Part shown: positions 3,154 to 55,649 of the stretch, one piece after another | Numbering within the stretch: the first letter of the stretch is position 1 | How the letters are laid out: each line of letters starts with the position of its first letter | Sequence record: OR455461.1 | Strand: one strand, 5' to 3' | Length of the DNA stretch: 64,000 bases | Origin: Staphylococcus phage AH12 | The notes under the pieces: model-generated | Databases searched by the model: none | The model's input: the letters and a program-made list of their open reading frames with translations, nothing else | What the model was told of the DNA's origin: nothing | Translations under genes and position numbers: made by a program

Positions 3154-3166
3154 ATATTAAATTGTT
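3154..3166 (-). promoter_or_regulatory. candidate late promoter AACA-N6-TAT (minus strand)
   Basis: Plus strand ATAttaaatTGTT is the reverse complement of AACAatttaaTAT, about 42 nt upstream of the 3113 start. Confidence 0.4.
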
Positions 3167-3402
3167 ACTATGGATTATATCATCTTTATATATTTTGTTT
3201 ATGTATCTCAAAATTTCTTTAATTTTAATTAATTAATTTTTAATAACATTTTTAATTACTATTATTTTTTATTAATTAAAATTTTATATAAATATATATT
3301 ATAAAATAGTAATATTAATTAATTTATTGAATTATATTTAGTAATATAATTATATTACCTAGGTTTTTTAAAAAAATTTGATTAAGAAAATTTTAGAAAA
3401 CC

Positions 3403-3447
3403 GAAAGAATAAAATATTATTAGAAAAAGAGGAGAGATTTGGATATG
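3403..3447 (+). promoter_or_regulatory. conserved upstream module AAAGAATAAAATATTAT ... GAGGAGAGATTTGGATATGAAAA (copy 1)
   Basis: Near-identical module also precedes the minus-strand gene at 8661. Includes RBS and start codon. Confidence 0.4.
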
Positions 3448-3945
3448 AAAATAAAATTTTTAATTACTAGTCCTTATGAAGTTAATGGACCTATTACAAA
3501 AGAAATTGAGTTTGATGAAGATAAGATGTATGAAGTTATTGGAAGAGAACTTAATCAAAATGAAGAAGATATTATTATGGATATAATGCCAGCACCTTTA
3601 CATTCAGTAGTTAGTTTTACTTATTTAGGGCATACAAAAGATAGATATACTTCAGATGATATAAACTTCTTAATGTTTGACAGTATACCTTGTTTTGATA
3701 AAGCTGCTTTTGCTTATTTAGAGTTTGATGAAAATAAAGAAGCTAATTTAGTTGATATTAGTGATGAATTGGCTAAAGCGGTTCATGAATATATTAAAAC
3801 TAATAGAGAGAATATCAGTGACGAGATTAAAGAAAAAATAGATGACAGTATTGAATCAGGTCATTTAGATGAATTAATTGATTATCTTAATGAAGATGAT
3901 AAAGAAAAAGAAATTAATGAATATGGTGATGAAGATCATGAATAG
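3439..3945 (+). CDS. hypothetical acidic protein
   Basis: 168-aa ORF with GAGGAGAG RBS. D/E-rich C-terminus. Confidence 0.55.
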   Translation: MDMKIKFLITSPYEVNGPITKEIEFDEDKMYEVIGRELNQNEEDIIMDIMPAPLHSVVSFTYLGHTKDRYTSDDINFLMFDSIPCFDKAAFAYLEFDENKEANLVDISDELAKAVHEYIKTNRENISDEIKEKIDDSIESGHLDELIDYLNEDDKEKEINEYGDEDHE

Positions 3946-4330
3946 GGATACATTAAAATTTATAATTGATAGCGAAAATAAAAAACTTGGAACAAGAAAA
4001 TCAAGATATGAATTTAAATATAAAGGATACAATGCATTCATAGTTAGACATGATACATTAGGACACTTAAATGGATATGTTGAGATTGGTGCAGGAAATT
4101 ATGATGAGAAATTAGAATATTATTCTCATGGAGGTATTACTTATAATGAAGGTGGTATAATTGGTTTTGATTGTGCTCATTCAGGAGATCTAATACCTGA
4201 AATATTTTTAAACGGTTTAATGGCGAACGAGAGTAATGATACTTATAAAAGTCTTAATTATGTAGAAAGTTGTATTAAAGAAATGATAGACTTTTTAGTG
4301 GAAAAGGAGCAATTTATTAATGGTGAATAA
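3938..4330 (+). CDS. hypothetical protein (GFDCAHSGD motif)
   Basis: Track ORF 3878..4330. The likely true start is ATG 3938 (MNRDTLKF), overlapping the upstream stop. Stop overlaps the start of the next gene. Confidence 0.45.
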   Translation: MNRDTLKFIIDSENKKLGTRKSRYEFKYKGYNAFIVRHDTLGHLNGYVEIGAGNYDEKLEYYSHGGITYNEGGIIGFDCAHSGDLIPEIFLNGLMANESNDTYKSLNYVESCIKEMIDFLVEKEQFINGE

Positions 4331-5465
4331 TATTTTTAAAACAGTGGCTATAGCAGATCTACATTATGGAAAGAAAAATCCTAAAAAATTAACTGATGAA
4401 CTTAATGAATACTTTGTTAAATATATAGAAGATAATAATGATATTGATATGGTTGTTATTTCAGGAGATCTATTTGATAGAGTTATTAGATTTAATGAAC
4501 CTGCTGGCAAAGAGGTATTAGAGTTCATGGATCGTATGTTCACTTTATCAGAAGAAAAGAACTTCTTATTACGTTTATTAAAAGGTACAAAAACACATGA
4601 CTTTAATCAACTTGATGTATTTAATCAAAATGAGTTAGAGTATAATAATTTTAAGATTATTAATACATTGGAATCTGAATTAGTTAAACATAATGGTAAA
4701 GAAGTTAATTTACTTTATATACCTGAAGAATATCCAGATGATAAGAAAGAATATTACAATGATCTTATATACTCTGTAGAGGATAATACGTATGATAATA
4801 TATTTGGTCATGGAATGATTGATTTCGTAACATTTGTTCCTGATGAAGATGATTCAGAAAATCCAGTTAAATCAGCACCTATATTAGAGTCTAAAGAGTT
4901 AATGAGAATTACTAAAGGTGTAACTGTATACGGTCATATTCATGACTTTCACGAATACAAAGATAAAGTATATTATTGTGGTTCATATTCAAGATATTCT
5001 TTTAAAGATACTGAAGATAAAGGATTCTTAGTTATTGAAAATAATCTTGATGAAGATGATTATAATGTAGAATTAATTTTAAATGAAAAAGCTCCAACTT
5101 ACGTTACTATAAATATGGATCAATATGAAAATCTAACGGAACAAAAGAAACTAGAAATAATCAATGAGTTACGTCAAGAAAATGATTATGTAAGATTTGT
5201 TTCAACGTCTAAGGATGATGTTGATATAATTAAGCAAATTTCTAGTTCCGATAAAAATATAAAAGTACAATTTAACAACAAAAATATTAAGGAAGTAAAA
5301 GTTGACGAGAAATACCAATTTATCTTAGATGATGAACTTGATGTACCTGAGACTATTATTAAATTTAACTCTATTAAACATGATAAAGATTTAGATTTAA
5401 AAGAAGTTAAAAATATAATTGATCCAGATTTTGAAGATTTAATTAATTTAGATAAAGAAAAATAA
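4320..5465 (+). CDS. SbcD/Mre11-like calcineurin-fold nuclease
   Basis: Phosphoesterase motifs in order: DLHYG, GDLFD, GTKTHD, GHGMIDF, YGHIHDF. Confidence 0.65.
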   Translation: MVNNIFKTVAIADLHYGKKNPKKLTDELNEYFVKYIEDNNDIDMVVISGDLFDRVIRFNEPAGKEVLEFMDRMFTLSEEKNFLLRLLKGTKTHDFNQLDVFNQNELEYNNFKIINTLESELVKHNGKEVNLLYIPEEYPDDKKEYYNDLIYSVEDNTYDNIFGHGMIDFVTFVPDEDDSENPVKSAPILESKELMRITKGVTVYGHIHDFHEYKDKVYYCGSYSRYSFKDTEDKGFLVIENNLDEDDYNVELILNEKAPTYVTINMDQYENLTEQKKLEIINELRQENDYVRFVSTSKDDVDIIKQISSSDKNIKVQFNNKNIKEVKVDEKYQFILDDELDVPETIIKFNSIKHDKDLDLKEVKNIIDPDFEDLINLDKEK

Positions 5466-5492
5466 TGACGTAATGGAGAGTGTATTAACGAT

Positions 5493-9492: not shown

Positions 9493-9505
9493 ATAAGATG
9501 TTGTT
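9493..9505 (-). promoter_or_regulatory. candidate late promoter AACA-N6-TAT (minus strand)
   Basis: Plus ATAagatgtTGTT is the reverse complement of AACAacatctTAT, upstream of 8726..9487. Confidence 0.35.
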
Positions 9506-14824: not shown

Positions 14825-14914
14825 AGTTAAATATATATTATAAAAATGTATTTAATATAGTAATTTTAAATACGCTTATCATTTTATTAATTATCTAAGG
14901 AGAGTGTGTCTTAA

Positions 14915-16660
14915 TTGGAAAACAATAAAGTCGTAGAGAGAGAAGCTTTAAGAGAAGAAGATTTAAATTTGAATGAAATAGAAGAAAAGGTAGAAGAAAA
15001 GAAAGAAATACCTTTGTTATCTAGTAATGTTTTTAAATTAAAACCGGTTAAAGGTAATTTTGAGTTTACAAATAAGTATATTAATTCAATAGACTTAGAA
15101 ACTTATGAGAAAGAAGTAACTCAGAAAAATGGTAATAAGAAGATTGAAACTAAAATCATTCAGCGAGATGATATTGAAGAATTAATAAAATTTGTTGATG
15201 ATACTAATGATACATTATTCATTAATGTACATAAGATATTAAACAAACCTAATTTGAATACTGATTATGTTAATGACATATTTACAATCCAAATCAAACA
15301 ACGTTCTTATAAGAGTATATTAGAGTACATTGTCAATGACATGAATTTTATATTTAATGAAATACCACATATCATATTAAAATGTGCTAATATTTGTCAA
15401 AAAATATTTAGTAAAAAAGATGAATATAGTGAAGAAGAATTCTTCCAAGATATTCAAGATTTAATTGAAGATGAAGATTTAAGAAATGTTGTTTGTACTA
15501 TCGTTAATGATAATTATTCCATTGATTTAGATAAGACAAATGCTGAAGCAATGTTACAAAGTAAAAAAATCATTAAAAAAGATTTACAAGTTACAGACCA
15601 AGTCAATAAGTCATTTTTATCAACTGCATTATTGCAAAGATTTATTATACCTTTTATTAATCAGTATTATGTACTTACTAATAAATATCATTGTAAGAAT
15701 ACAGATGAAGATAAAGAGAGAACTAAGAATGGATATTTTAAAGCATTTAATTATTGTATGTGTATTACATCTTTAGATTATAATGTAGCTAATAATAATA
15801 AACTTTATAAGATAGTAGAACCTAAAGTAATTAAAACAAAATATAATGACAGAGTTATGTGGAAGTTTTTAGATTTACGTTCTATAGATCCAGATACAGT
15901 AATCAATAAAATAATGGATAAGATTATAAGACAAATAGTATGTAAATTATTAGTTGATACTTCTGCAGTATCTTATTTCACTTCTGTTATCAAATTCTCA
16001 ATAGATTATGAATTCCAATTCAAATATCCTATTAAGTTCAGATCAATTAAATTAACTACAGATGATGACGATGATGAAGATGGTTTTGATAAATTCCAAA
16101 TGAATAATTTCTTTAAGCAAAATGAAAGATTAGATATTGCTAATAAAATAACTATTGATCGTTATATCACTGAAAAATTAAAAGAATTAAATATCAGTGA
16201 AGAATATATTAAGCATTTATATGACAAATTTGATTATATAAATGATTTACAATCTCATTTAATTAAAGTTTATTTTGCTGAGCATTTTGATGTTAATACA
16301 AATGATAGAAAGAGCATTGTATCATTATTAGCAATTATGTCTAAAGAATTAATTGAAAATAATATGGATACTTTAGGTAAGATAGTTGCTTCAAAAGTAG
16401 TTTCTGGAACTAAAGCTAAGAATGTGGGTAAATTATCATTAGATGTTATTGCAGATAAATACTATGTATCTGCTTGGGATAAATATAAATTTATTAATGA
16501 TATTACTGAAAAAGATAATTTCATATTAAGAATTGCATTAGTTAATGGTTACAAGTTTAGTTATACTCCTGAAGATTTAAATTCTGAAGAAGAAGTAATT
16601 GCTGATATTGATAAAAAATATTTCATTTCTGAAGTATCACAATTTATATCAAATTATTAA
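14915..16660 (+). CDS. hypothetical protein
   Basis: 581-aa ORF. TTG start after AAGGAGAG. Confidence 0.55.
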   Translation: MENNKVVEREALREEDLNLNEIEEKVEEKKEIPLLSSNVFKLKPVKGNFEFTNKYINSIDLETYEKEVTQKNGNKKIETKIIQRDDIEELIKFVDDTNDTLFINVHKILNKPNLNTDYVNDIFTIQIKQRSYKSILEYIVNDMNFIFNEIPHIILKCANICQKIFSKKDEYSEEEFFQDIQDLIEDEDLRNVVCTIVNDNYSIDLDKTNAEAMLQSKKIIKKDLQVTDQVNKSFLSTALLQRFIIPFINQYYVLTNKYHCKNTDEDKERTKNGYFKAFNYCMCITSLDYNVANNNKLYKIVEPKVIKTKYNDRVMWKFLDLRSIDPDTVINKIMDKIIRQIVCKLLVDTSAVSYFTSVIKFSIDYEFQFKYPIKFRSIKLTTDDDDDEDGFDKFQMNNFFKQNERLDIANKITIDRYITEKLKELNISEEYIKHLYDKFDYINDLQSHLIKVYFAEHFDVNTNDRKSIVSLLAIMSKELIENNMDTLGKIVASKVVSGTKAKNVGKLSLDVIADKYYVSAWDKYKFINDITEKDNFILRIALVNGYKFSYTPEDLNSEEEVIADIDKKYFISEVSQFISNY

Positions 16661-17948: not shown

Positions 17949-17961
17949 AACATCATTTTAT
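17949..17961 (+). promoter_or_regulatory. candidate late promoter AACA-N6-TAT
   Basis: AACAtcatttTAT 8 nt before ATG 17969. Confidence 0.35.
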
Positions 17962-22978: not shown

Positions 22979-22991
22979 ATAAATAAATGTT
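22979..22991 (-). promoter_or_regulatory. candidate late promoter AACA-N6-TAT (minus strand)
   Basis: Plus ATAaataaaTGTT is the reverse complement of AACAtttattTAT, about 85 nt upstream of the 22896 start. Confidence 0.35.
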
Positions 22992-24619: not shown

Positions 24620-24632
24620 ATAAAATTATGTT
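24620..24632 (-). promoter_or_regulatory. candidate late promoter AACA-N6-TAT (minus strand)
   Basis: Plus ATAaaattaTGTT is the reverse complement of AACAtaatttTAT, about 30 nt upstream of the 24591 start. Confidence 0.4.
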
Positions 24633-25361: not shown

Positions 25362-25374
25362 AACATGTACTTAT
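25362..25374 (+). promoter_or_regulatory. candidate late promoter AACA-N6-TAT
   Basis: AACAtgtactTAT 17 nt upstream of ATG 25390. Confidence 0.45.
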
Positions 25375-34440: not shown

Positions 34441-34500
34441 ATCCGATTCACTCTCCTAGTGTAATTTTTATGAAATACTATTAGCTAATTAGTACTTCAC

Positions 34501-34519
34501 TTTTATAATATATATTTAA
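34501..34519 (-). promoter_or_regulatory. class-A motif TTTAAATATATATTATAAA (minus strand)
   Basis: Reverse complement of plus TTTATAATATATATTTAAA, upstream of 32368..34440. The same 19-mer core recurs at 37681, 40048 and 61060. Confidence 0.35.
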
Positions 34520-34571: not shown

Positions 34572-34584
34572 AACATATTATTAT
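34572..34584 (+). promoter_or_regulatory. candidate late promoter AACA-N6-TAT
   Basis: AACAtattatTAT 36 nt upstream of ATG 34619. Confidence 0.35.
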
Positions 34585-37626: not shown

Positions 37627-37680
37627 ATCATGTTCATCTCCATATTATAATATTAAGATTATATTTTAATAATCTCAAAT

Positions 37681-37698
37681 TTATAATATATATTTAAA
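37681..37698 (-). promoter_or_regulatory. class-A motif TTTAAATATATATTATAA (minus strand)
   Basis: About 55 nt upstream of the HE-like gene start at 37626. Confidence 0.35.
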
Positions 37699-40047: not shown

Positions 40048-40064
40048 GATAATATATATTTATT
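40048..40064 (-). promoter_or_regulatory. class-A-like motif AATAAATATATATTATC (minus strand)
   Basis: 20 nt upstream of the 40027 start. Overlaps the beta-prime stop. Confidence 0.3.
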
Positions 40065-40458
40065 AATAAATATAATCTTCGATGTCTATTTCATTTTGTT
40101 TAATTGTCATATCATGGAAAGACTTCATAGAGCTTGTTACAATTGCTTGAGCTACCTGATTGACTAATAAACCAATATTTTCTATACCTAATTTGTAAGG
40201 GAGTTCTCCTGCACATTTACTACAGATATCTTCACTTGCACAATACATAGGACTTCTGAAGTTCAATACTTTCCCAATATGCTCATCTACATTTGAAGTA
40301 GTTAACAGTGTTAATTGACCTTTTCTTCCTGAATTATCTTCAAAATATCTATAAAGTAAAAGATTCGCATTATCTTTAGTTAAAGTTAATTTTAATGTAT
40401 GTTTTGTTCTACAATCAGAACCTTGTTTATCTAATACAGTTGTTTGGAAAGCAGACAT
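40063..40458 (-). CDS. multisubunit RNAP beta-prime-like subunit, distal C-terminal exon
   Basis: RSPMYCASEDICSKCAG (compare RSPLTCE..GVCAKCYG) and GLLVNQVAQAIVTSSMKSFH (compare [21 protein letters not shown]). The reading frame is open upstream to 40479. Confidence 0.65.
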   Translation of the reverse strand: MSAFQTTVLDKQGSDCRTKHTLKLTLTKDNANLLLYRYFEDNSGRKGQLTLLTTSNVDEHIGKVLNFRSPMYCASEDICSKCAGELPYKLGIENIGLLVNQVAQAIVTSSMKSFHDMTIKQNEIDIEDYIY

Positions 40459-40482
40459 AAGTTTTTTAGCTTGATCATTTTA

Positions 40483-40603
40483 TTATCTATATTTTATTAT
40501 AGATTAGACTATATCTTATGAATTTAATCATTTCTATATTTAGTCGTTGAACAACTTAATAAAGTTGATGCTAGTTAGTTTTTAACATTCTAGCAATTAA
40601 TAG
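40483..40603 (-). mobile_element. group I intron-like element B (P TTAATTGCTAG, Q CTAGCATC, R GTTCAACGACTAAAT, S GATATAGTCT)
   Basis: All four core elements present in order on the minus strand. The P/Q pairing GCTAG:CTAGC covaries relative to GCTGA:TCAGC in the other four copies. Confidence 0.5.
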
Positions 40604-40644
40604 AATTTATTGTGAGCATCTAATTTACCCACCTTCTTGAGTCA

Positions 40645-40816
40645 TTTATGTTAATCTATATTAATTTAATATAGATCAGACTATATCAAAAACTCTTTAT
40701 GAGTTTAATTATATTTAGTCGTTGAACAATCATTCTGATTGATGCTGATTAAGTTTATCTCTTCTCAGCAATTAATAATTTTTCTATTATTACATTACTA
40801 TAATAAAGGGCATTCA
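40645..40816 (-). mobile_element. group I intron-like element A, with 5' region ATGCCCTTTATTATAGTAATGTAATAATAGAAAAAT shared with the intron at 45210
   Basis: P, Q, R and S elements in order (rc of 40764-40775, 40741-40752, 40713-40727, 40678-40688). The upstream exon ends ...GGTATATGA. Confidence 0.5.
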
Positions 40817-41617
40817 TATACCTAAAGCACGTCCAGCTGAACCAGCAGTCATAATGTCTCCAAACATATATAGTTCTTCTGGATCAATTCCATCAGCTAA
40901 AGAACTCTTAGCAATACGTATTTTACTAGGATCAGCGAAGTTTTTATTTGCTCCACGTATTAATGCAGTTAACTTGAAGTTATTTCCAAAACTACCTCTT
41001 GATCCACTATCATAAATATCAAGGTCTGCTAAACCTTCTAATTCTTCTTTACTTAACTTAATTAATTCTTTTTCAATAGCACTAATAGCATTCAATTCTT
41101 CACCAGGAGTATTTAATGCTTTACCATATTTCTCTAGTAATTCTTCTTTCTTTTGTTTAACTTTATCAGGAGCAACCATCATTGTAGTTGTCAAACTAGA
41201 ATTAATAAATCCTGCTATAGAGAAACCAAGCCATTGAAGTTTATCAATATACATATTCATATCTTTAGTTGTAATAACATCATTAAGTAATAAACTAGAT
41301 AACTCAGATTGTAGATTTCCTACACCTGATCCTCCCATATCTTTATTCATATATCCTATAATAGGTCCTATTTTATTGTCTAATATAAATTTATTAAATA
41401 TATATCTTCCAACTGTTGTTCTTTCATCTTTACTATTATAAACTAAATCTTTTTTAAGTTTAAATCTATCGCTAGGATTAAACATTGGTTGTGTATTTTG
41501 TCTAAATGCAAATAATTCTTTAAGTTTATCAAGAGTAATATCTTCTTTTTTTATACTTAATAAAGTTGATACTTCTTTCTCAGATAAATCTTTTTTATCA
41601 TAAGTCATATTAACCAA
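40814..41617 (-). CDS. multisubunit RNAP beta-prime-like subunit, proximal C-terminal exon
   Basis: DSGSRGSFGNNFKLTALIRG (compare [21 protein letters not shown]) and TAGSAGRALG (compare STHGARKGLADT). Confidence 0.65.
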   Translation of the reverse strand: MVNMTYDKKDLSEKEVSTLLSIKKEDITLDKLKELFAFRQNTQPMFNPSDRFKLKKDLVYNSKDERTTVGRYIFNKFILDNKIGPIIGYMNKDMGGSGVGNLQSELSSLLLNDVITTKDMNMYIDKLQWLGFSIAGFINSSLTTTMMVAPDKVKQKKEELLEKYGKALNTPGEELNAISAIEKELIKLSKEELEGLADLDIYDSGSRGSFGNNFKLTALIRGANKNFADPSKIRIAKSSLADGIDPEELYMFGDIMTAGSAGRALGI

Positions 41618-41648: not shown

Positions 41649-41661
41649 AATATTTGAATGT
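41649..41661 (-). promoter_or_regulatory. candidate late promoter AACA-N6-TAT (minus strand) for the beta-prime C gene
   Basis: Plus ATAtttgaaTGTT is the reverse complement of AACAttcaaaTAT, 33 nt upstream of the 41617 start. Confidence 0.45.
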
Positions 41662-41886
41662 TATCGTCAATTTTATATTTTTGTAATTTATAAAAATATC
41701 TCGTAAAAAATTTGAAAACGCCCGGAATATTATATTTATATAATAATATAATTATTATAATATATTAAAATATTTAAATATTTTAATATATAAAAAATAT
41801 AATATTAGAGGGGGTATATTTAGATTTTGATTATATCAAAATCTAATAAATTATTTCTTCTTAAATTACATAAGAAAGATAAAGAA

Positions 41887-41899
41887 AACAAGTACATAT
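41887..41899 (+). promoter_or_regulatory. candidate late promoter AACA-N6-TAT for the beta gene
   Basis: AACAagtacaTAT 36 nt upstream of the GTG 41934 start. Divergent from the 41649 motif across a ~300-bp AT-rich region. Confidence 0.45.
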
Positions 41900-41933: not shown

Positions 41934-44900
41934 GTGAAGTATCTTAATAGATTAAAGAATTTAAAATTCTATTCAATTTCAGGATATAAGATTAAAGCTA
42001 TAGATGAAAATATTAAGGATCAAAAGAAAAACCAATTAATAATTTATAAAGGTTTTAAAGAAAATTCATTTATAGAATTCTTAAATAGTGGTATATTATA
42101 TTATCAAAATTTCAAGAATATTTATACTCCTAGAATATATAGAACAGCAAATAGAAAATCAAGATTAATTACTAATATTTCAGATTATCAACAAGAAATT
42201 AAAAGTAAATCAATTAAATCTTATAGAGTTGAAAGAAATGAGAAATTATTTAAAGGAAGAAACTATATAGTTGATTCAAGTAAATTTATCAATCTTGAAG
42301 ATAAATCTTTAATGACTAAGAATTTTAAAACTGTATCAGATTCAATTAAAAATACTTATAATAATTTAAATAATCCAGAAGAATATGAAAATTTATTATA
42401 TGTAATTAATGTAGATGGATACAATAAATCTTCTCAAGAAGCTATTAGACCAAATACAAAAGATTTTATGTCAAGTTTATTTATGATGATTAAGAATCAG
42501 GAAGAATTACCTCATAAAGAAAATCAAAATGTAGTAGCTTTATTTATTTCTATTGAGAACGGTATAATGTTTAAATTTGATTTTAAAGATTATAATAAAT
42601 TCAATAATAGATTAAGACAAAGATTAAGAAGAGCTATTGATTTAAATACACAACAAATAGATACAGATGAAATTTCTAATGTTGAAGATGATGATAATAC
42701 AGAAGCTATAGATTCAACTATTAAAAAGAAATCATTTAGCAATGTTAAAGATATTGATCCAGTTGAATTACAAGATAAGAATGAAGATGAAGTTAATCAG
42801 GATATTGAAGATTCTAAGATGGAAAAAATATCTAAGAAAATAGATGATACATTAAGATATATTAAATCTAATGATAATATTGATATGGATATTAATGATG
42901 AATATAATATTGCAATGATAATTGAAAAAGAATTAAACAATAATAATGATCTTATTGATATTGATGAAGATACATTATACAATGATGTACTTGATAAGAA
43001 TGATTCATTTAAATCAATTAAAAGAGATATTAAAAATAAATCATATATTGGAGACACTGCATTAAAGAATTCTAAAAAGATATTATCACTAGCTAAAAAT
43101 CAAGATGAATATCTTGAAAAATTAGAAGATTTTAGTTTCTCTGAAGATAGTATTATTGATAGAGAAATTAATGAAAATGTCAATAGTATTAATGATGAAG
43201 CAATAAACAATGTATCTTCAAATGATTTTGACTTATCTTATATGAAAAAGACATTTAATAAAGACTTTGTAAATATTATGAAGAGTTTTAATGATAAGGA
43301 AGAAATACCAGTATTCATTAACAAAATGAATGTAGAAGATAATTCAGATTCTCAATCATTAAAGAATACTGTAAAAGTTCAATTTAAGAGTCCTGATGGA
43401 ATTAACCATAATGTAAAATTTGATGTACCTAAAATTATTGATGGTAAATATTTAAAATTAAATGGTGGTAAAAAGGTTCTAACTAAACAATTAATGATGT
43501 ATCCTATTGTTAAATATAGACCAGATACAGTTTGGATTACAACTAATTATAATAAATTTATCATTGAAAAATTTGGTACTAAAGAGAATTCTGAAACTGA
43601 ATGGCTTAAAAAAGTTATTGAAGATAAACAAGTACTAGAATACATTAAAGATAAAAATGATATTAATATTCAAAAAGGTAACTCATCTTTAATTAATAAA
43701 GAATATTTAACTTCTGTGTTGTATAATAATTTATCTAAAAATATATTAAGATTCTCTAAAGATGATTTGATAATTGATTTTAATCAAAGAAATCTTAAAA
43801 AAGTTATTTCAGAAAGTAAAACTTTAAGTGAAATTGATTATGATAAAGATAAATACTATCCTATCGGTTATAGTTCAAACAAATCTAAATTAATATTGTC
43901 AAATACTACAGAATCTATTATTTTTAAAGCTACTAAAAGTAATATAGAATCTATGAATATTAATATTACAGATTATATTATTGAACAACTTGAAGATAAT
44001 ATTGATTTTAGTCTAATAGATAAAAAATTCAGTAAAAATATTCAAGCTAGTAAAACAATGGCATTTTCTCGTGTTAAAATTACTAATAAATTAATTCCTA
44101 CAATAGTATTATTAGGTTTCTATAAAGGTTTAACTAGTATTCTTGATCTTTATGAAGTTGATTATAAGTTTGTTGAAGAAAATGAAAGAATAACTATTAA
44201 AGATAAGAAGAATAAAATTAAATTCCAAAATGGTTATCTTATTTATTCAACAGATAAATTAAGATATGATTTATTATTATCAGGATTAAATACTATTCCT
44301 ACTTCACAATATGACTTTGAAGAATTTAATAGTGAAACACCTTACTTAGAATACTTTAATGATAAGTTCTATAGTCGTAATGTTGGTAAAGGAATTAAAA
44401 ATGCATTAGATTTAGCAATGGATCCTATTACAGAAGATGTATTAAGAGATTTAAAATTACCTGAAACTATGGTTGAGTTATTACTCTTAGCTAATACCAT
44501 GCTAGAAGATGTAACTGCTAGAGAACACAATGACATGGGAATATATCGTGTACGTGGTCCAGAACAAGTTAATGCTTTAATGTATAAAATGATTGCAAAT
44601 GCATATAAAGAATATTCTGACTCTTACAATAATAAGAATCCTAAGAATATTTCAGTTAAACAAGACCAATTAATTAAAACTATTATGGAACAACCTACTG
44701 TAGATGAAGTATCTGATCTTAATCCATCTTTAGAGATTGATAAGATGACTTCAGTAACTTTTAAAGGTCCAGCAGGACGTAATAATGAACAATCATATGA
44801 ACCTGATATTCGTTCATATAGTGAAAGTATGCAAGGCGTATTAGGAATATCTAGTCCTGATAGTAATAAAATTGGGGTAGTTAGACAGCTTTCATATAAT

Positions 44901-45050
44901 TCATTAATTAAATCTACTAGAGGTTATACTGATGGCGGTAAAAAAGATGCTAATGATACATCTCTATACACTCCATTAGAATTACTTAACCCTTATTCTA
45001 GTAGACATGCCGATAATCAAACATGGATAGTCGGCTTAAAAACTATTTAA
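41934..45050 (+). CDS. multisubunit RNAP beta-like subunit, exon 1
   Basis: C-terminal KGPAGRNNEQSYEPDIRSYS ... SPDSNKIGVVRQLSYNS matches [25 protein letters not shown] ... TPEGPNIGLINSLS. The stop TAA is the first triplet of the P element. Confidence 0.65.
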   Translation: MKYLNRLKNLKFYSISGYKIKAIDENIKDQKKNQLIIYKGFKENSFIEFLNSGILYYQNFKNIYTPRIYRTANRKSRLITNISDYQQEIKSKSIKSYRVERNEKLFKGRNYIVDSSKFINLEDKSLMTKNFKTVSDSIKNTYNNLNNPEEYENLLYVINVDGYNKSSQEAIRPNTKDFMSSLFMMIKNQEELPHKENQNVVALFISIENGIMFKFDFKDYNKFNNRLRQRLRRAIDLNTQQIDTDEISNVEDDDNTEAIDSTIKKKSFSNVKDIDPVELQDKNEDEVNQDIEDSKMEKISKKIDDTLRYIKSNDNIDMDINDEYNIAMIIEKELNNNNDLIDIDEDTLYNDVLDKNDSFKSIKRDIKNKSYIGDTALKNSKKILSLAKNQDEYLEKLEDFSFSEDSIIDREINENVNSINDEAINNVSSNDFDLSYMKKTFNKDFVNIMKSFNDKEEIPVFINKMNVEDNSDSQSLKNTVKVQFKSPDGINHNVKFDVPKIIDGKYLKLNGGKKVLTKQLMMYPIVKYRPDTVWITTNYNKFIIEKFGTKENSETEWLKKVIEDKQVLEYIKDKNDINIQKGNSSLINKEYLTSVLYNNLSKNILRFSKDDLIIDFNQRNLKKVISESKTLSEIDYDKDKYYPIGYSSNKSKLILSNTTESIIFKATKSNIESMNINITDYIIEQLEDNIDFSLIDKKFSKNIQASKTMAFSRVKITNKLIPTIVLLGFYKGLTSILDLYEVDYKFVEENERITIKDKKNKIKFQNGYLIYSTDKLRYDLLLSGLNTIPTSQYDFEEFNSETPYLEYFNDKFYSRNVGKGIKNALDLAMDPITEDVLRDLKLPETMVELLLLANTMLEDVTAREHNDMGIYRVRGPEQVNALMYKMIANAYKEYSDSYNNKNPKNISVKQDQLIKTIMEQPTVDEVSDLNPSLEIDKMTSVTFKGPAGRNNEQSYEPDIRSYSESMQGVLGISSPDSNKIGVVRQLSYNSLIKSTRGYTDGGKKDANDTSLYTPLELLNPYSSRHADNQTWIVGLKTI

Positions 45051-45145
45051 TTGCTGAAATTACTTTAAAGTTAATCAGCATCAATCAAATTGTTCAACGA
45101 CTAAATAATAGATACTAATTATATAATTAGTAATGATATAGTCTC
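45048..45145 (+). mobile_element. group I intron-like element 1 (P 45048, Q 45071, R 45092, S 45135)
   Basis: TAATTGCTGAAA ... TTAATCAGCATC ... GTTCAACGACTAAAT ... GATATAGTCT in order. About 100 nt. Confidence 0.45.
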
Positions 45146-45209
45146 AACTATGTATAAAGTATATAGAAATAAGATAATGTCTCCACGTATTGGAATGACT
45201 GGTATATGA
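45141..45209 (+). CDS. putative micro-exon (VSTMYKVYRNKIMSPRIGMTGI)
   Basis: Open frame between elements 1 and 2. NKIMSP loosely resembles NRALMG of beta. Ends GGTATATGA, exactly as the beta-prime exon before element A does. Confidence 0.3.
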   Translation, partial: VSTMYKVYRNKIMSPRIGMTGI

Positions 45210-45410
45210 ATGCCCTTTATTATAGTAATATAATAATAGAAAAATCTTTAATTGCTGAGAAAATAATAATTAAGTTAATCAGCATCAATCAAATTGTTCA
45301 ACGACTAAATAAGATTATACCTAAACGGTATTTGATATAGTCTCAGCTTTAATTTATTTTAAAGAAGTTCATTAAGAACTAATACACAATAAACAAAGTG
45401 TATTAAGATA
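45210..45410 (+). mobile_element. group I intron-like element 2 (P 45249, Q 45272, R 45293, S 45334) with shared 5' region
   Basis: ATGCCCTTTATTATAGTAATATAATAATAGAAAAAT followed by P, Q, R and S in order. Confidence 0.45.
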
Positions 45411-45865
45411 ATCTGACTCAAGCCAAGCACGTAATTCCAACAAAAACTAATAGTAAACCATTAGTTGGATCTGGTGTTGATAAATCTTTAGCTTATCAAT
45501 TATCAGATACATTTGCTTTTAAAGCTAAACAAGATGGTAAAGTATTAAAAATTAACGAGAAAACTGGTTTAATGACAGTAGAATATATCAATGGTGAAAA
45601 AGATATTGTTGATATATCTGAAAAATTAGCCAAAAACTCTAACTCAGGTTTTTATCAATCTAATAAACTTGATCCACAATTTAATGTAGATGACACTTTT
45701 AATAAAGGTCAAATACTTGCTAAAAATAATAATTTCTTTGCTGGATCCGGTAAAGATAATGATATTCAATTTACTTCAGGTAAATTATCTAAAGTATCTG
45801 TAGCTAGCTCATATGGTATTATAAATGCCTTTCATTATAGTAATGTAATGTCAAAAAATTATTAA
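45407..45865 (+). CDS. RNAP beta-like subunit, exon 3
   Basis: NLTQAKHVIPTKTNSKPLVGSGVDKS ... KAKQDGKVLKI matches [23 protein letters not shown] ... AKRGGVVQYV. Track ORF 45572..45865 is the ATG-limited part of this open frame. Confidence 0.55.
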   Translation, partial: DNLTQAKHVIPTKTNSKPLVGSGVDKSLAYQLSDTFAFKAKQDGKVLKINEKTGLMTVEYINGEKDIVDISEKLAKNSNSGFYQSNKLDPQFNVDDTFNKGQILAKNNNFFAGSGKDNDIQFTSGKLSKVSVASSYGIINAFHYSNVMSKNY

Positions 45866-45992
45866 TTGCTGAGAAATATTAAATTAATCAGCATCTCTAC
45901 ATTTATAGAGTTCAACGACTAAATATGATTATTCATTAATACTAATGAATTTGATATAGTCTAATCTATTATAAAAATATAATAGCTAATAT
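45866..45992 (+). mobile_element. group I intron-like element 3 (~127 nt; P4/P5, P6, P7, P8 and P9 hairpins assignable)
   Basis: TAATTGCTGAG ... TTAATCAGCATC, CTCTA/TAGAG hairpin, GTTCAACGACTAAAT, ATTCATTA/TAATGAAT hairpin, GATATAGTCT, CTATTATA/TATAATAG hairpin. Confidence 0.5.
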
Positions 45993-45994
45993 AA

Positions 45995-46756
45995 ATGACT
46001 TATGAAGATAGTTCTATTATTTCTAGTAGTATGTCTGAAGCAATGTCTACTAAAGTTACTATGAAGAAAACAGTAAATATTCCATCAAACACAAATATTC
46101 AATATATAGTTAAAGAAGGTCAGAAAGTACGTACAGGTGATCCTTTAATGATATTTGAAACTTCATTTGATGAAGAAGGTATTGGTTCTTTATTAGATAA
46201 AATCGGTAGTGAATTTGAACAAGATATTCAAGATATAGCTAATCGAGCTGTTAGAAGTAAATATACAGGTAATATTAAAAAGATTAATATTTATTATAAT
46301 GATGATATTGAAAATATGACTGATAGTTTAGCTAAATTAGTTAATAATTACATTAAAAAATCAAATGATAAATATAAAGAATATAAATCTGGAGTTAAAA
46401 ATAATAAAGAAACTTTACCTGGTATTGATGTAGATATTGCAGCTGTAGAGAAAATTAATACAGAGAAAATTAAAGGAGAAAAAGTTGACGGAGTTCTTAT
46501 TGAAATCTTCACTGAATATGAAGATGATATGAGTGTTGGAGATAAAATTAGTTTCTACGGAGCTTGTAAAACTGTAGTTGCTGATGTAACTCCTCCAAAT
46601 GAATCACCTTATTCTGAATATAGATCTGATGAAGAAGTTGAAGCTGTATTCTCTCCATTAAGTATTGTCTCTCGTATGACAGTTGATATTTATATGATGT
46701 TATTCACAAATAAAGCTTTAATAGAATTAAAACGTAAAGTAAAAGATATGGTATAA
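45995..46756 (+). CDS. RNAP beta-like subunit, exon 4
   Basis: EGQKVRTGDPLM (compare GEPVERGDVLADG) and GDKISFYGACKTVVADVTPP ... SPLSIVSRMTV (compare GDKMAGRHGNKGVISKINP ... NPLGVPSRMNIGQ). Confidence 0.6.
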   Translation: MTYEDSSIISSSMSEAMSTKVTMKKTVNIPSNTNIQYIVKEGQKVRTGDPLMIFETSFDEEGIGSLLDKIGSEFEQDIQDIANRAVRSKYTGNIKKINIYYNDDIENMTDSLAKLVNNYIKKSNDKYKEYKSGVKNNKETLPGIDVDIAAVEKINTEKIKGEKVDGVLIEIFTEYEDDMSVGDKISFYGACKTVVADVTPPNESPYSEYRSDEEVEAVFSPLSIVSRMTVDIYMMLFTNKALIELKRKVKDMV

Positions 46757-46803: not shown

Positions 46804-46816
46804 AACACTATAATAT
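46804..46816 (+). promoter_or_regulatory. candidate late promoter AACA-N6-TAT
   Basis: AACActataaTAT 32 nt upstream of ATG 46847, directly after the terminator. Confidence 0.45.
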
Positions 46817-48164: not shown

Positions 48165-48177
48165 AACATTAACATAT
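48165..48177 (+). promoter_or_regulatory. candidate late promoter AACA-N6-TAT
   Basis: AACAttaacaTAT 39 nt upstream of ATG 48215. Confidence 0.45.
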
Positions 48178-48214
48178 CGTATAAATAATAATAATAAGAA
48201 AGTGAGGAAAATTA

Positions 48215-49483: not shown

Positions 49484-49541
49484 TATATTATAAATCAAAA
49501 GAATTAACTATAAAATACAGAAAATAAAGGAGAATTTTAAT

Positions 49542-51458: not shown

Positions 51459-51508
51459 AATTTTATAACATTATTATATAATATTAATTATTTTTCGCTG
51501 TTTTAAAT

Positions 51509-51591
51509 AAAACCCTAATACATTACTAAACGATGAGCCAATTTAAAAATAAGAAACTCTCATCAGTTTAAAAAATGTATTAGGGGGTTTT
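51509..51591 (+). other. nested RNA structure: 16-bp long-range stem enclosing a GATGAG/CTCATC hairpin
   Basis: AAAACCCTAATACATT pairs with AATGTATTAGGGGGTTTT across 50 nt. Lies between 49542..51458 and 51628..52782. Confidence 0.35.
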
Positions 51592-51627
51592 ATTTGAAAA
51601 AATTAAACAGAAAGTAGGAGAAAACTT

Positions 51628-52782: not shown

Positions 52783-52787
52783 AAAGG

Positions 52788-53618: not shown

Positions 53619-54349
53619 TTATGAGTATAATTAAATTAGGCAATGATCCCATATCTTTTGTTTATCAAGGTAATGAGTTGTTATATCCTAATCCAGTTAA
53701 AGACGGTTTATTATTATGGTATGATTTTAAAGGTATAAAGAATGACATGAATAAAGATGTTGCTATAGATTTAAGTGGAAACGAGAACAATGGGACTTTA
53801 CAAAATTTTGCTTATACAAGCGATAGTGGATATGATGACGGATTGAAATTTGACAATATCGATGATAGATTGGTTACAAATACTAATATTGAGTCTAATT
53901 CATTTACTTTATCTATGACTATTGATATAAAAAATCAAAAAGATATAAATTTTTTATTTGGTGGCAATATTTCTGCGTTTTATATGAGAAAAAATTACAA
54001 TGATTTACACGCTTCTATTTTTACTGACAAACAAGTAACTTCTTCATCCGGAAATAAATTCTTCTATAATCTATTTAATGAAGGTAAATCAAAATGTCAG
54101 GTTATATTAAAAGTCGATGACGATAATAAGACACTTTCAATATTAGGTAATGGAATATTGCTTGATGAAAGAATATTTGAAGGTATAATAAATAAATGGA
54201 GGGTAACTAGTTTGGGAGCATGGTCATCATCATCTAATAATGACAATCTCAATGGTAAACTTTTATCATCCCATCTTTACAATAGAGCATTATCTCTAGA
54301 AGAAATAAAACATAACTTTGAGTTAGAAAAAGAAAGGTGGAACTTGTAA
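53606..54349 (+). CDS. LamG-like paralog
   Basis: YPNPVKDGLLLWYDF ... EEIKHNFELEKERWNL. Overlaps the previous gene by 13 nt. Confidence 0.45.
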   Translation: MGVIIMSIIKLGNDPISFVYQGNELLYPNPVKDGLLLWYDFKGIKNDMNKDVAIDLSGNENNGTLQNFAYTSDSGYDDGLKFDNIDDRLVTNTNIESNSFTLSMTIDIKNQKDINFLFGGNISAFYMRKNYNDLHASIFTDKQVTSSSGNKFFYNLFNEGKSKCQVILKVDDDNKTLSILGNGILLDERIFEGIINKWRVTSLGAWSSSSNNDNLNGKLLSSHLYNRALSLEEIKHNFELEKERWNL

Positions 54350-54570
54350 TGAAGTTTGTAATTGCAGATGTGGAATTTTTTGAAAGATTGGGTTATAGCA
54401 CTAAATATTGGAGAAAATCTGTAGACGGAAATAAAACTATATGTCATCTAGAATATGCAGAAATTTTAGATAACGGTATTCAAGAAGAAGAAGATGTTTT
54501 AGTCGTTGATGCAACTGAAGCTCAAGATATTATGAATACGGAAGAATGGTCTAGTAAAGAAGAAGAATAA
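54337..54570 (+). CDS. small acidic protein
   Basis: 77-aa ORF overlapping the stop of the upstream gene. Confidence 0.4.
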   Translation: MELVMKFVIADVEFFERLGYSTKYWRKSVDGNKTICHLEYAEILDNGIQEEEDVLVVDATEAQDIMNTEEWSSKEEE

Positions 54571-54571
54571 G

Positions 54572-54584
54572 AACAAGTAAATAT
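54572..54584 (+). promoter_or_regulatory. candidate late promoter AACA-N6-TAT
   Basis: AACAagtaaaTAT 29 nt upstream of ATG 54612. Confidence 0.45.
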
Positions 54585-54611
54585 AATAAAAATAAATGGA
54601 GGAAATTTTTT

Positions 54612-55574
54612 ATGGCTAAAAAACATATCGGTACATGGAACGGTGTTCCTGTTTATACTGATTTTTTACCAATAGGTACACGTAGAGCTGGAGATAAGCT
54701 TAACGGACCTAAATTTATTGTTGCTCATGACACAGGAAACCCTAACACTACTGCTCAAAATAATGTCGATTACTATCGTAATTCATATAATATCGACTGG
54801 AACTATACTGCTTCAGCACATATTTTTGTTGATGATAAAGAATGTATTATCTGTGTTCCTTTAGATGAAAAAGCATGGCATGTTATGTATAATACACCAA
54901 CTGACAATGCTTGGTATGGAGCAGATGCAAACGATGCAGCTATTGGTGTTGAAGGATGTTACTTCTCTAATAGAAGTCGTTCATTAAAATCATTTGATAA
55001 CTATTGTCGTATTCTTGCTTTCTTATGTAAAGAATATAAAATTAATGCAAGCACAAATATGCCTGGTCACCAAGATATTCAGGCAGATAAACAAGATCCA
55101 GGTAACTTATTAGCTGCATGCGGTATGTCTCGTAGTGTTTCTAATGTAGATAAAAAAGTTCTAGCTTATATGAAAACTGGTGCTACTTCTACAGCTAAAA
55201 CTTCAACAGCAACTAAAGTTGCTACTAAAGAAGAAGTTGCTAAGAAAGCTCCAGCTAAACCAGCTAAAACTTCAACTGCAACTTCTAAAACTTGGAAACG
55301 TAATTCTGCAGGTATTCTATGGAAAACTGAAAAAGCTACATTTAAATGTGGTGTTGCAGTAGGTATTAAAACACGTAAAGGTGGTCCATGGACTGGATGG
55401 CCGCAAGGTCCATTTATGGCTAAAGGAGATACTATTAAATATGATGAAATTCAAGATTTTGATGGATATATTTGGGTATCAGGTAACTTTAAAGGCCAAT
55501 ACGTTTATGTACCGGTTGGTAAATCAACAGGAAATGGTAAACGTGTAGGTCCAGCATGGGGTACATTTAGTTAA
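54612..55574 (+). CDS. endolysin: N-acetylmuramoyl-L-alanine amidase (Amidase_2/PGRP) plus C-terminal SH3b
   Basis: FIVAHDTGNPNTTAQNNVDYY ... WHV amidase_2 core. C-terminal WKRNSAGILWKTEKATF ... GWPQGPF ... YDEIQDFDGYIWVSG ... AWGTFS closely resembles lysostaphin-type SH3b. Confidence 0.8.
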   Translation: MAKKHIGTWNGVPVYTDFLPIGTRRAGDKLNGPKFIVAHDTGNPNTTAQNNVDYYRNSYNIDWNYTASAHIFVDDKECIICVPLDEKAWHVMYNTPTDNAWYGADANDAAIGVEGCYFSNRSRSLKSFDNYCRILAFLCKEYKINASTNMPGHQDIQADKQDPGNLLAACGMSRSVSNVDKKVLAYMKTGATSTAKTSTATKVATKEEVAKKAPAKPAKTSTATSKTWKRNSAGILWKTEKATFKCGVAVGIKTRKGGPWTGWPQGPFMAKGDTIKYDEIQDFDGYIWVSGNFKGQYVYVPVGKSTGNGKRVGPAWGTFS

Positions 55575-55589
55575 TTCATTAATTTAATT

Positions 55590-55618
55590 GTCCTAACGTT
55601 CATATAGAGCGTTAGGAC
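55590..55618 (+). terminator. terminator hairpin GTCCTAACG / CGTTAGGAC
   Basis: 9-bp stem followed by TTATTTCTTT. Confidence 0.5.
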
Positions 55619-55636
55619 TTATTTCTTTAATAGAAG

Positions 55637-55649
55637 AACAGGTTATTAT
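55637..55649 (+). promoter_or_regulatory. candidate late promoter AACA-N6-TAT
   Basis: AACAggttatTAT 42 nt upstream of ATG 55690. Confidence 0.45.

Follow-up and report, generated by a model that had tools for sequence, protein, structure and literature searches.

Fourteen intergenic copies of the motif AACA-N6-TAT, found in the 64-kb stretch of Staphylococcus phage AH12 DNA that was analysed (hereafter the window), are very probably promoters of the phage non-virion RNA polymerase (nvRNAP) and the staphylococcal counterpart of the late promoter of Bacillus phage AR9. By analogy with that phage, they are expected to share its start site, its late timing and its dependence on deoxyuridine (dU). 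The genes that follow them encode virion structural proteins, lysins and the virion RNA polymerase (RNAP). The AACA-N6-T type of late promoter has been experimentally mapped only in AR9, and late promoters were reported as not identified in a published Staphylococcus jumbo-phage study.

Counting both strands of the whole window gives 16 exact AACA-N6-TAT matches. Of these, 14 are intergenic, intergenic DNA making up 9.6% of the window. As the promoter reading of a preliminary description of this DNA had implied, the motif is enriched there: the 14 copies in 6,138 bp compare with 2.87 ± 1.67 expected from dinucleotide shuffles, of which the richest held 10 and 0 of 2000 reached 14. In the 57.9 kb of coding DNA, 2 copies were observed vs. 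29.6 ± 5.1 expected, with a minimum of 18 among the shuffles and two or fewer in 0 of 200. Owing to this scarcity in genes, the whole-window total (16 observed vs. 33 expected) masks the signal. Among the 16,384 patterns consisting of a 4-mer, N6 and a 3-mer, AACA..TAT has the highest intergenic/coding ratio. Concerning the spacing, N6 gives 14 intergenic, 1 coding sense and 1 coding antisense copies, vs. 0-4, 6-18 and 5-17, respectively, for the other spacings from N2 to N10. Tails TAA, TAG, TAC or TG in place of TAT showed neither enrichment nor depletion. All 14 intergenic copies have a gene downstream on the same strand, the distance from the motif end to the start of the longest ORF being 5-148 nt, mostly 27-40 nt.

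The window, with a G+C content of about 25%, shares 94% nucleotide identity with the Staphylococcus jumbo phages vB_StaM_PB50 and Machias; its nearest relatives form the S6/MarsHill/Machias/PB50 group, and AR9 is distant kin. The same intergenic-enriched and coding-depleted pattern recurs in MarsHill, SA1 and PB50 segments. In the whole PB50 genome, the N6 spacing yields 41 intergenic, 13 coding sense and 1 coding antisense copies, vs. 6-24, 22-58 and 19-53 for the other spacings.

All 13 sites named in the preliminary description were found in their places, and its list had to be extended by a fourteenth, at 51467..51479(+). On the minus strand, the candidate late-type promoter AACAATTTAATAT (3154..3166, predicted +1 at 3155) faces the virion-associated gene 2214-3113(-), orthologue of AR9 g281; AACAACATCTTAT (9493..9505, predicted +1 at 9494) faces the Zn-finger endonuclease gene 8726-9487(-), orthologue of g233; AACATTTATTTAT (22979..22991, predicted +1 at 22980) faces 21784-22896(-), whose AR9 orthologue encodes a virion structural protein; and AACATAATTTTAT (24620..24632, predicted +1 at 24621) faces the virion structural protein gene 23062-24591(-), orthologue of g214. 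The two virion-RNAP genes have one site each: AACATTCAAATAT (41650..41662, minus strand, predicted +1 at 41651) for the beta-prime C gene at 40063..41617(-), consisting of ORF pieces 40814-41617 and 40063-40458 with an insert between them, and AACAAGTACATAT (41887..41899, plus strand, predicted +1 at 41898) for the beta gene at 41934..46756(+), consisting of ORF pieces 41934-45050, 45572-45865 and 45995-46756. As for the rest of the plus strand, AACATCATTTTAT (17949..17961, predicted +1 at 17960) lies before 17969-19261(+), AACATGTACTTAT (25362..25374, predicted +1 at 25373) before 25390-26379(+), a virion structural protein gene orthologous to g213, together with 26403-30402, and AACATATTATTAT (34572..34584, predicted +1 at 34583) before 34619-35311(+), orthologue of g242. 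Further along are AACACTATAATAT (46804..46816, predicted +1 at 46815; gene 46847-48109(+)), AACATTAACATAT (48165..48177, predicted +1 at 48176; gene 48215-49483(+), whose AR9 orthologue encodes a virion structural protein) and the added site AACATTATTATAT (predicted +1 at 51478), which is separated from gene 51628-52782(+) by 148 nt containing a conserved long hairpin. The two lysin genes, 54612-55574(+) (an amidase) and 55690-56487(+), are preceded by AACAAGTAAATAT (54572..54584, predicted +1 at 54583) and AACAGGTTATTAT (55637..55649, predicted +1 at 55648). The motif had been described as often following a terminator, which is true of five of the 14 sites, namely those at 24620 (a strong hairpin), 41887, 46804 (a hairpin), 48165 (terminator 48115-48146) and 55637 (terminator 55590-55618), and not of the others.

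Two copies are intragenic. The sense copy AACAAGAAATTAT (29230..29242, +), 179 nt upstream of 29422, has a counterpart in PB50 only, being absent from MarsHill and SA1, and may be an internal promoter or a chance match. The antisense copy AACAAATCTCTAT (36077..36089, +), inside 35368-37626(-), has no counterpart in the motif list of the PB50 genome and is probably a chance match. Conversely, several late-looking genes of the window have no exact motif, e.g. 9582(+), which codes for a baseplate wedge and for whose AR9 orthologue, g232, a late promoter has been mapped; the consensus therefore misses some promoters.

Of the 14 intergenic sites, twelve recur at the orthologous position in MarsHill, in SA1 or in both. 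The intergenic spacers that bear them are orthologous across relatives of 76-81% identity, while the N6 bases vary: the 11 aligned trios all agree in AACA and TAT, and at positions -7 to -4 only 0-7 of the 11 match. The 3154..3166 site, for instance, is kept with a variable N6 in PB50, MarsHill and SA1; the 17949..17961 site reads AACATTCACTTAT in both MarsHill and SA1, the 46804..46816 site reads AACACATTAATAT in SA1, and the 51467..51479 motif is identical in PB50, MarsHill and SA1. The 41887..41899 site is present in PB50 and has no exact match in MarsHill or SA1, where the virion-RNAP beta gene has only AACT-N6-TAT, about 100 nt upstream. In PB50, the motif occurs at all five virion-RNAP gene clusters and at no nvRNAP gene.

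Ten motif-bearing genes of the window, coding for virion proteins and the virion-RNAP beta and beta-prime C subunits, have AR9 orthologues, nine of which carry AACA-N6-T[AG] 24-51 nt upstream. For seven of the ten, the AR9 late start site has been mapped by experiment (Lavysh et al. 2017, Table S3): g213, g214, g281, g233 (UTR of 35 nt), g242 (32 nt), g189 (26 nt) and g264 (32 nt). The likeness to AR9 late promoters noted earlier is thereby substantiated, as is the assignment of the beta and beta-prime C genes to the virion RNAP, since they are the orthologues of g189 and g264, respectively, which are annotated as virion RNAP and mapped as late.

A second promoter class was found in the window, the AR9-type early (virion-RNAP) element AAATATATATTAT-N6-G, also reported for MarsHill (Korn et al.), with five perfect and four one-mismatch copies ahead of replication and nucleotide-metabolism operons and of the specificity-subunit gene. 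All five perfect copies are intergenic and gene-facing. They are located at 3290..3309(+), before the 3439-7241 operon (metallophosphatase, DnaB-like helicase); at 14829..14848(+), before the specificity-subunit gene; at 34498..34517(-), before the operon comprising 32368-34440, RNase H and dCMP deaminase; at 37676..37695(-), before 35368-37626(-); and at 61056..61075(-), before 59811-61016(-). AR9 g226 likewise lies behind early promoters. The preliminary description had stated that replication and nucleotide-metabolism genes lack AACA-N6-TAT. The replication genes stand behind early-type promoters. For nucleotide metabolism the statement is not strict: the guanylate-kinase-like gene 8095-8661(-) is downstream of the 9493-9505 promoter, and the stretch separating the two contains no further promoter motif; that promoter probably drives both this gene and 7302-8078(-).

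The gene at 14915..16660(+), annotated in PB50 as the promoter-specificity (sigma-like) subunit of the nvRNAP, is the homologue of AR9 gp226 (31% identity; E 9.4e-41 to PDB 7S01 chain A). Its residues V314, M315, F318, S353, Y354, F369 and Y371 align to the AR9 contact residues V206, I207, Y210, S245, Y246, F261 and Y263. Thus the 2.1bis-helix valine that excludes thymine (V314, equivalent to V206) is kept, as is the aromatic residue stacking on G(-9), and the product would recognise AACA on the template strand as in AR9. In that phage, the purified nvRNAP holoenzyme initiates specifically from the AACA element, and the structure shows the bases of the element in protein pockets; R363 and K375 of gp105 (beta-N) complete the U(-10) pocket, K375 being the second U(-10) contact. 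In the PB50 homologue of gp105, which is encoded outside the window, R363 aligns; K375 aligns less cleanly, facing an N next to a K in a gapped loop. The placement of the phage in the uracil-DNA, two-RNAP lineage is likewise supported by its S6/MarsHill/Machias/PB50 kin and by the virion-RNAP subunits and gp226 homologue that it encodes. The DNA of S6 was shown to contain dU, that of the MarsHill group is presumed to do so and behaves like U-DNA, and some genes of the window occur only in U-DNA phages.

Several other readings of these sites were weighed. A chance by-product of very AT-rich intergenic DNA might be suspected from the base composition (about 25% G+C) and from the naive whole-window count of 16, below the 33 expected. 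However, no shuffle out of 2000 reached 14 copies, other spacings and tails had no effect, the pattern ranks first among 16,384, and it is kept in relatives of 76-81% identity despite a variable spacer; the shuffles, together with the spacing and tail controls, rule out such an origin, and its probability is negligible. That the sites are promoters of the host sigma-A RNA polymerase, with TAT inside a -10 box, is scarcely more credible, even though several of them run TATAAT or TATTAA from TAT onward. Across 42 PB50 sites, no position from -36 to -12 is conserved, the relative entropy never exceeding 0.15 bit per position. AACA and TAT, 6 nt apart, stand too close to be -35 and -10 boxes, which are separated by 16-18 nt. 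Sigma-70-like sites show no enrichment (128 vs. 137.6 expected), and phages of the AR9 group do not depend on the host RNAP for transcription.

We also regard as improbable, though less so, that the motif is the binding site of another phage regulator, or an RNA-level signal in late messages, for instance a leader element or a site of processing at their 5' ends. Primary and processed 5' ends are inseparable by sequence analysis alone, and AR9 late transcript ends are poorly enriched by TEX treatment. Against this stand the in vitro initiation of the AR9 holoenzyme at the element, with contact residues conserved here, and the fact that the purge is strongest on the antisense strand of genes (in PB50, 1 copy vs. 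19-53 at other spacings). The latter fits the avoidance of spurious initiation and not an RNA signal, because such a signal would act only on sense transcripts. Of a different order is the possibility that the sites are indeed nvRNAP promoters, but of genes that are not strictly late, some being expressed in the middle phase or continuously; it is unlikely on balance, yet deserves serious consideration. In AR9, 86 continuously expressed genes combine an early with a late promoter type, early-core-like TATATTAT strings are also present in the 41618-41933 spacer of the window, and the motif occurs upstream of the DNA primase gene of PB50 (by 54 nt) and, likewise, of AR9 g225. Nevertheless, most motif-bearing genes are without a same-strand early-type consensus, and their AR9 orthologues are virion components.

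For nvRNAP promoters of late genes, the following course can be proposed on the AR9 model. The injected virion RNAP would transcribe from the AAATATATATTAT-N6-G early promoters, including the one ahead of the specificity-subunit gene, whose product would join the split beta/beta-prime nvRNAP core. The holoenzyme would then read 3'-UUGU-5' on the template strand at -11 to -8, in pockets expected to accept deoxyuridine and not thymidine, and RNA would begin at the A of TAT; of the earlier expectation of a start at the W, the predicted A is retained, and not any W. The resulting transcripts, with leaders of about 25-45 nt, would encode virion proteins, lysins and virion-RNAP subunits, of which the last are packaged for use in the following infection.

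A at +1 and T at +2 appear to be required in this lineage, the +2 T being a requirement that we infer purely from the counts. A more tentative proposal, whose chances we put slightly short of even, is that the nvRNAP of Staphylococcus jumbo phages has a tighter start-site need than that of AR9 (A at +1, T at +2), that the seven specified bases are sufficient in vivo, and that selection has, as a consequence, cleared the motif from coding DNA on both strands. If true, the late transcription units of these phages could be mapped from sequence alone, a 13-bp, dU-dependent and host-orthogonal promoter would be defined, and an enzyme contact with the +1/+2 bases would be indicated.

Among known systems, the late promoters of the phiKZ nvRNAP (T-3ATG+1) resemble the present ones in having a minimal element centred on the start site and a homologous five-subunit nvRNAP, but they have no upstream AACA element, use G at +1 and function on thymine DNA. 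A phiKZ-type late promoter was rejected here, G following TAT in only 2 of 42 PB50 sites and AACA being obligatory. The bacterial sigma-70 -10 element is likewise short, lies about 10 nt upstream of the start and is read base-wise in pockets of a sigma2-like domain; its recognition, however, takes place on the non-template strand and depends on a second element, a -35 or an extended -10, whereas AACA-N6-TAT would be read on the template strand and has no conserved upstream partner. AR9 and the window also have the early (virion-RNAP) promoter element in common, a class distinct from AACA-N6-TAT and its partner signal. The closest match is the AR9/PBS1 late promoter itself, A-11ACA-8-N6-T-1 A/G+1, used by the nvRNAP holoenzyme with gp226: the AACA, the 6-nt gap and the purine at +1 are the same, as are the short leaders, the gene classes (virion proteins, virion RNAP) and the location at orthologous places before orthologous genes, and the specificity subunits are homologous, with conserved template-strand contact residues. 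The two differ in host (Staphylococcus vs. Bacillus) and in the length of the specificity subunit, 464 aa in AR9 vs. 581 aa here, where about 115 aa are added at the N-terminus. They also differ around the start site: at +1, G occupies 16 of the 93 AR9 sites, whereas only A is found here (a single AACA-N6-TG site occurs in PB50 intergenic DNA); at +2, AR9 has A at 35, G at 19 and T at 38 sites, vs. T in essentially all sites here; and A is favoured at +4 here, unlike in AR9. Finally, coding DNA here shows a 15- to 30-fold depletion of the motif, which that of AR9 does not.

With genes called as simple longest non-overlapping ORFs, which leaves 6,138 bp (9.6%) of intergenic DNA, the AACA-N6-TAT pattern, i.e. 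the late-type signal attributed to the non-virion RNA polymerase (nvRNAP) in AR9, has 16 matches in the window, 14 of them intergenic and two intragenic (29230(+), sense, and 36077(+), antisense). All 13 sites listed in the preliminary description are present, the additional intergenic one being 51467-51479(+), and each of the 14 intergenic copies faces a gene on its own strand. The distance between the motif end and the start of the longest ORF ranges from 5 to 148 nt, mostly 27-40 nt. In the three shortest cases (5, 7 and 15 nt), the start codons are probably set too far upstream; about 20-27 nt further downstream there is another start, along with a ribosome-binding site, and for gene 25390, the annotators of the related Staphylococcus phage vB_StaM_PB50 (PB50) use the later start.

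The frequency of the motif in intergenic DNA exceeds that in shuffled sequence, a comparison suggested at the outset: 14 copies were observed vs. 2.87 ± 1.67 expected (maximum 10), and none of 2000 dinucleotide-preserving shuffles reached 14. As for the coding pieces, their shuffles gave 29.6 ± 5.1 copies (minimum 18) vs. 2 observed. Because these two effects are opposite and specific, the whole-window count (16 vs. 33 expected) looks like a depletion, a reading rejected as misleading. No other of the 16,384 patterns made of a 4-mer, N6 and a 3-mer reaches the intergenic-to-coding ratio of AACA..TAT. The N6 spacing has 14 intergenic, one coding sense and one coding antisense copies vs. 0-4, 6-18 and 5-17, respectively, for the other spacings from N2 to N10. 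Since N3 (14/13 coding copies) and N9 (18/6) share the codon phase of N6 and are not depleted, codon structure is not the cause of the coding gap. Concerning the tail, AACA-N6 followed by TAA, TAG, TAC or TG shows neither intergenic enrichment nor coding depletion. One-mismatch variants are too common in AT-rich DNA (the G+C content of the window is 20-33%) to call further promoters, e.g. for the baseplate gene 9582, and the exact consensus misses some late-looking genes.

Megablast of positions 40000-60000 matched Staphylococcus jumbo phages only, with nucleotide identities of 94% for PB50 and Machias, about 81% for LY01, S6, Madawaska and MarsHill, and 78% for SA1. Gene names were taken from the PB50 annotation of the syntenic 73 kb. 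In that segment, the N6 motif has 15 intergenic, 4 coding sense and no coding antisense copies, as compared to 14, 1 and 1 in 70 kb of MarsHill and 12, 1 and 0 in 71 kb of SA1; other spacings are background-like in all three. Over the whole PB50 genome (273,701 bp), 41 intergenic, 13 coding sense and one coding antisense copies were found vs. 6-24, 22-58 and 19-53 for the other spacings, and several of the 13 sense copies sit just 5' of annotated genes (tail sheath, baseplate wedge, portal, primase). The genes preceded by the motif in PB50 include those for the tape measure, tail sheath, major head precursor, terminase, tail fibres and baseplate wedge, as well as all five virion-RNAP gene clusters (25848(-), 130124(-), 207088(-), 207324(+) and 256820(-)) and none of the nvRNAP genes. 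With the A of TAT taken as +1, the profile of 42 PB50 sites holds information beyond the seven fixed bases only at +4 (A preferred) and as a weak bias at -3, and positions -36 to -12 show no conservation.

The orthologue of each motif gene was then located in PB50, MarsHill and SA1, and its 200 nt upstream were read, a stretch in which a chance match has an estimated p ~0.08 from base composition. For 12 of the 14 intergenic sites, MarsHill and/or SA1 have the exact motif in the equivalent position, and the spacer bases differ, as in the trios AACAATTTAATAT / AACAATTAAATAT / AACATTTAAATAT and AACAAGTAAATAT / AACAGTTAAATAT / AACAAACTAATAT. AACA and TAT are the same in all 11 ungapped motif-anchored trios (positions -7 to -4 agree in 0-7 and the flanks in 3-9 of the 11). 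This conservation is partly circular, the motif itself having been the search target; the test is the presence of the motif at nearly all orthologous places. The virion-RNAP beta gene carries AACAAGTACATAT in both the window and PB50. In MarsHill and SA1, the long spacer upstream of this gene (24283-24823 and 26297-26656 of the respective segments) has no exact motif, only AACT-N6-TAT (AACTATTGTATAT and AACTATAGAATAT) about 100-110 nt upstream; either a T is accepted at position -8 or the promoter has shifted. Of the intragenic copies, 29230 is kept in PB50 only and 36077 is absent even from PB50, and both may be neutral.

The early-type promoter of AR9, recognised by the virion RNAP, is AAATATATATTAT-N6-G (Lavysh et al. 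2017, PMC5312081). Perfect matches occur in the window at 3290(+), 14829(+), 34498(-), 37676(-) and 61056(-), and matches with one mismatch at 17887(-), 25311(-), 38702(-) and 40042(-). Downstream of early-type matches lie a metallophosphatase/helicase operon, the nvRNAP specificity subunit gene, an RNase H/dCMP deaminase operon and a tRNA. The two promoter classes divide the window, and they stand back to back in three divergent spacers (3114-3438, 17869-17968 and 34441-34618), an arrangement also present at AR9 g120/g121 and g152/g153 (Lavysh et al. 2017, PMC5312081). The claim that nucleotide-metabolism genes lack the late-type motif nearly holds, the exception being a guanylate-kinase-like gene, 8095-8661(-), which lies behind a late-promoted endonuclease gene with no promoter motif between the two. 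Outside the window, PB50 has a late-type motif at 89107-89119(-), 54 nt upstream of its DNA primase gene and within the 3' end of the preceding gene; in AR9, a late start site has been mapped for the primase gene (g225) too, and the group thus retains a late promoter on at least one of its replication genes.

At the Rfam gathering threshold, the whole window yielded two tRNAs and nothing else. Both genes, 38181-38265(-) and 38626-38695(-) (60 and 45.8 bits), are located in the 1.15-kb gap separating 35368-37626 from 38780-40027, the second directly downstream of the one-mismatch early-type promoter 38702-38721; ARAGORN gives no anticodon name for either (output 'tt').

The motif had also been described as often sitting directly after a terminator. 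This holds for five of the 14 intergenic sites (24620, 41887, 46804, 48165 and 55637), each preceded at 1-41 nt by the end of a strong hairpin with a T-rich tail; terminator-like sites are enriched in 40000-58000 (9 vs. 2.9 expected). The second most intergenic-biased pattern, CCTA-N6-TAG (10 intergenic, 2 coding), derives from the stems of such terminator hairpins, e.g. GTCCTAACG...CGTTAGGAC, in intergenic regions including 55590-55618 and 48115-48146. A long hairpin, 51480-51600(+), follows the late-type motif 51467-51479 and precedes gene 51628. It consists of the arms CCCTAATACAT...ATGTATTAGGGGG and the inner helix CGATGA...TCATCG, with a tail rich in T; PB50, MarsHill and SA1 all retain it, with a single compensatory change from C-G to U-A. 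By e-value, Rfam returned only far-sub-threshold miRNA-precursor matches for it and no family was assigned; possible roles are those of a terminator following the promoter, an attenuator or a late small RNA (about 115 nt).

The candidate reader of the motif is encoded by 14915-16660(+), behind the perfect early-type promoter 14829-14848, as in AR9, and at a position where PB50 annotates a 'non-viral RNA polymerase specificity subunit'. Its 581-aa product shows 31% identity over 427 residues to AR9 gp226, the specificity subunit of the AR9 nvRNAP, and matches PDB 7S01 chain A with an E-value of 9.4e-41. In AR9, the template-strand 3'-UUGU-5' is bound by gp226 together with beta-N: V206 sterically excludes the thymine methyl group at -10, I207 wedges the base at -10, Y210 stacks on G(-9), F261 and Y263 bond G(-9) through their main chain, and S245 and Y246 line the non-template groove; a common uracil-dependent mechanism was predicted from gp226 conservation (Fraser et al. 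2022, PMC9209446). In the alignment, these residues correspond to V314 (V206), M315 (I207), F318 (Y210), F369 (F261), Y371 (Y263), S353 (S245) and Y354 (Y246), and V314, Y354 and a KYPI block are invariant in the window, MarsHill, SA1 and AR9. Reading of the template strand in the gp226 manner would be a trait that Bacillus phages share with those of Staphylococcus and Listeria. The N-terminus of the subunit (14915-15290) holds about 115 residues absent from gp226 and common to MarsHill and SA1. As for beta-N, PB50 92978-94600(-), outside the window, is annotated as 'non-viral RNA polymerase beta-prime subunit'; its product is a homologue of AR9 gp105, the N-terminal piece of nvRNAP beta (33% identity, 503 aa), and the annotation is therefore probably mislabelled. 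R363 of gp105 aligns in this homologue, and the alignment of K375 is ambiguous.

Chance as the source of the motif is excluded by the shuffle, spacing and tail controls. That the sites would be host sigma-A promoters is unlikely: nothing is conserved at the position of a -35 box in the PB50 sites, sigma-70-like sites are not enriched (128 vs. 137.6 expected) and the AR9 group is independent of the host RNAP (Lavysh et al. 2017, PMC5312081). A processing site, or the site of another regulator, would agree poorly with the biochemistry of AR9 and with the purge of the motif from the antisense strand. For late promoters of the nvRNAP, this purge has a plausible basis, as the seven bases may suffice for initiation and selection would then remove stray copies, especially those on the antisense strand. 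Some units may be continuously expressed rather than strictly late.

The virion-RNAP beta-prime C and beta genes are split (40459-40813, 45051-45571 and 45866-45994) by an intron-like element (about 130-200 nt) that is present five times and has the conserved blocks TTAATTGCTGAGAA, TTAATCAGCATC, GTTCAACGACTAAATA and TGATATAGTCT. The gaps measure 355 and 521 nt in the window vs. 165 and 99 nt in PB50, so that the copy number varies between close relatives; in MarsHill and SA1, the beta-prime C gene is uninterrupted. The inserts had no Rfam match by e-value, even at E 0.1. Finally, ORFs 26403-29393, 34619-35311, 14057-14824 and 17969-19261 are homologues of AR9 YP_009283116, YP_009283146, YP_009283131 and YP_009283122, which would indirectly support a uracil-DNA genome.

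In the MarsHill preprint, the early motif was found with MEME and a late promoter 'was not identified' (10.1101/2020.12.14.422802), and according to a 2020 review bioinformatics fails to predict the late promoters of these phages. No description of late promoters in Staphylococcus jumbo phages came up in full-text literature searches. As far as the searched literature shows, the kind of promoter is already known, and this member, its tighter consensus and the purge from coding DNA are new. The late signal can be read from sequence, so that late and early transcription can be mapped over the window and PB50, with predicted start sites and timing. Staphylococcus jumbo phages transduce plasmids among staphylococci and are under consideration for therapy, and knowledge of their promoters would be useful for engineering reporter or payload phages.

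To our knowledge, AR9 is the only uracil-DNA jumbo phage with experimentally defined promoters. Of its 118 mapped non-early start sites, 94 share AACA-N6-T-A/G, the last base being +1 (Lavysh et al. 2017, PMC5312081). A search of AR9 with the window proteins gave orthologues for ten motif genes: virion structural genes (g213, g214, g281 and two more), the endonuclease gene g233, g242, one further protein gene, g189 (virion-RNAP beta) and g264 (virion-RNAP beta-prime C). AACA-N6-T[AG] lies 24-51 nt upstream of 9 of these 10, and for seven a late start site has been mapped, the leaders measuring 26-53 nt. In the preliminary description, the window's beta and beta-prime C genes were proposed to be late and to encode the virion-packaged RNAP; as orthologues of g189 and g264, which are late in AR9, they are indeed genes of the virion enzyme. 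The product of the beta ORF (41934-45050) is 98% identical to the protein annotated in PB50 as 'viral RNA polymerase beta subunit' and 41% identical to the AR9/PBS1 homologue.

Two testable differences from AR9 are the apparently obligatory T at +2 and the purge of the motif from genes. In AR9, the 93 mapped late promoters have A 76 times and G 16 times at +1, and A 35, G 19 and T 38 times at +2, whereas the intergenic N6 excess of PB50 is limited to TAT (41, vs. TAA 4, TAG 2, TAC 0 and TG 1). AR9 also shows intergenic enrichment at N6 (103 vs. 22-58 for other spacings) but no clear coding loss. A 50-kb piece of Listeria phage LPJP1 shows enrichment (10 vs. 1-5) and a weak depletion; the +1 base is always A there and the +2 base mainly T. 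An IMG/VR search with the specificity subunit alone gave no related loci, and one with a four-sequence alignment gave only AR9 itself and one uncultured relative (two identical loci), in which the motif is enriched and +2 is mixed. From these counts, the stricter start-site bases and the coding purge seem to characterise the Staphylococcus branch and, in part, the Listeria one.
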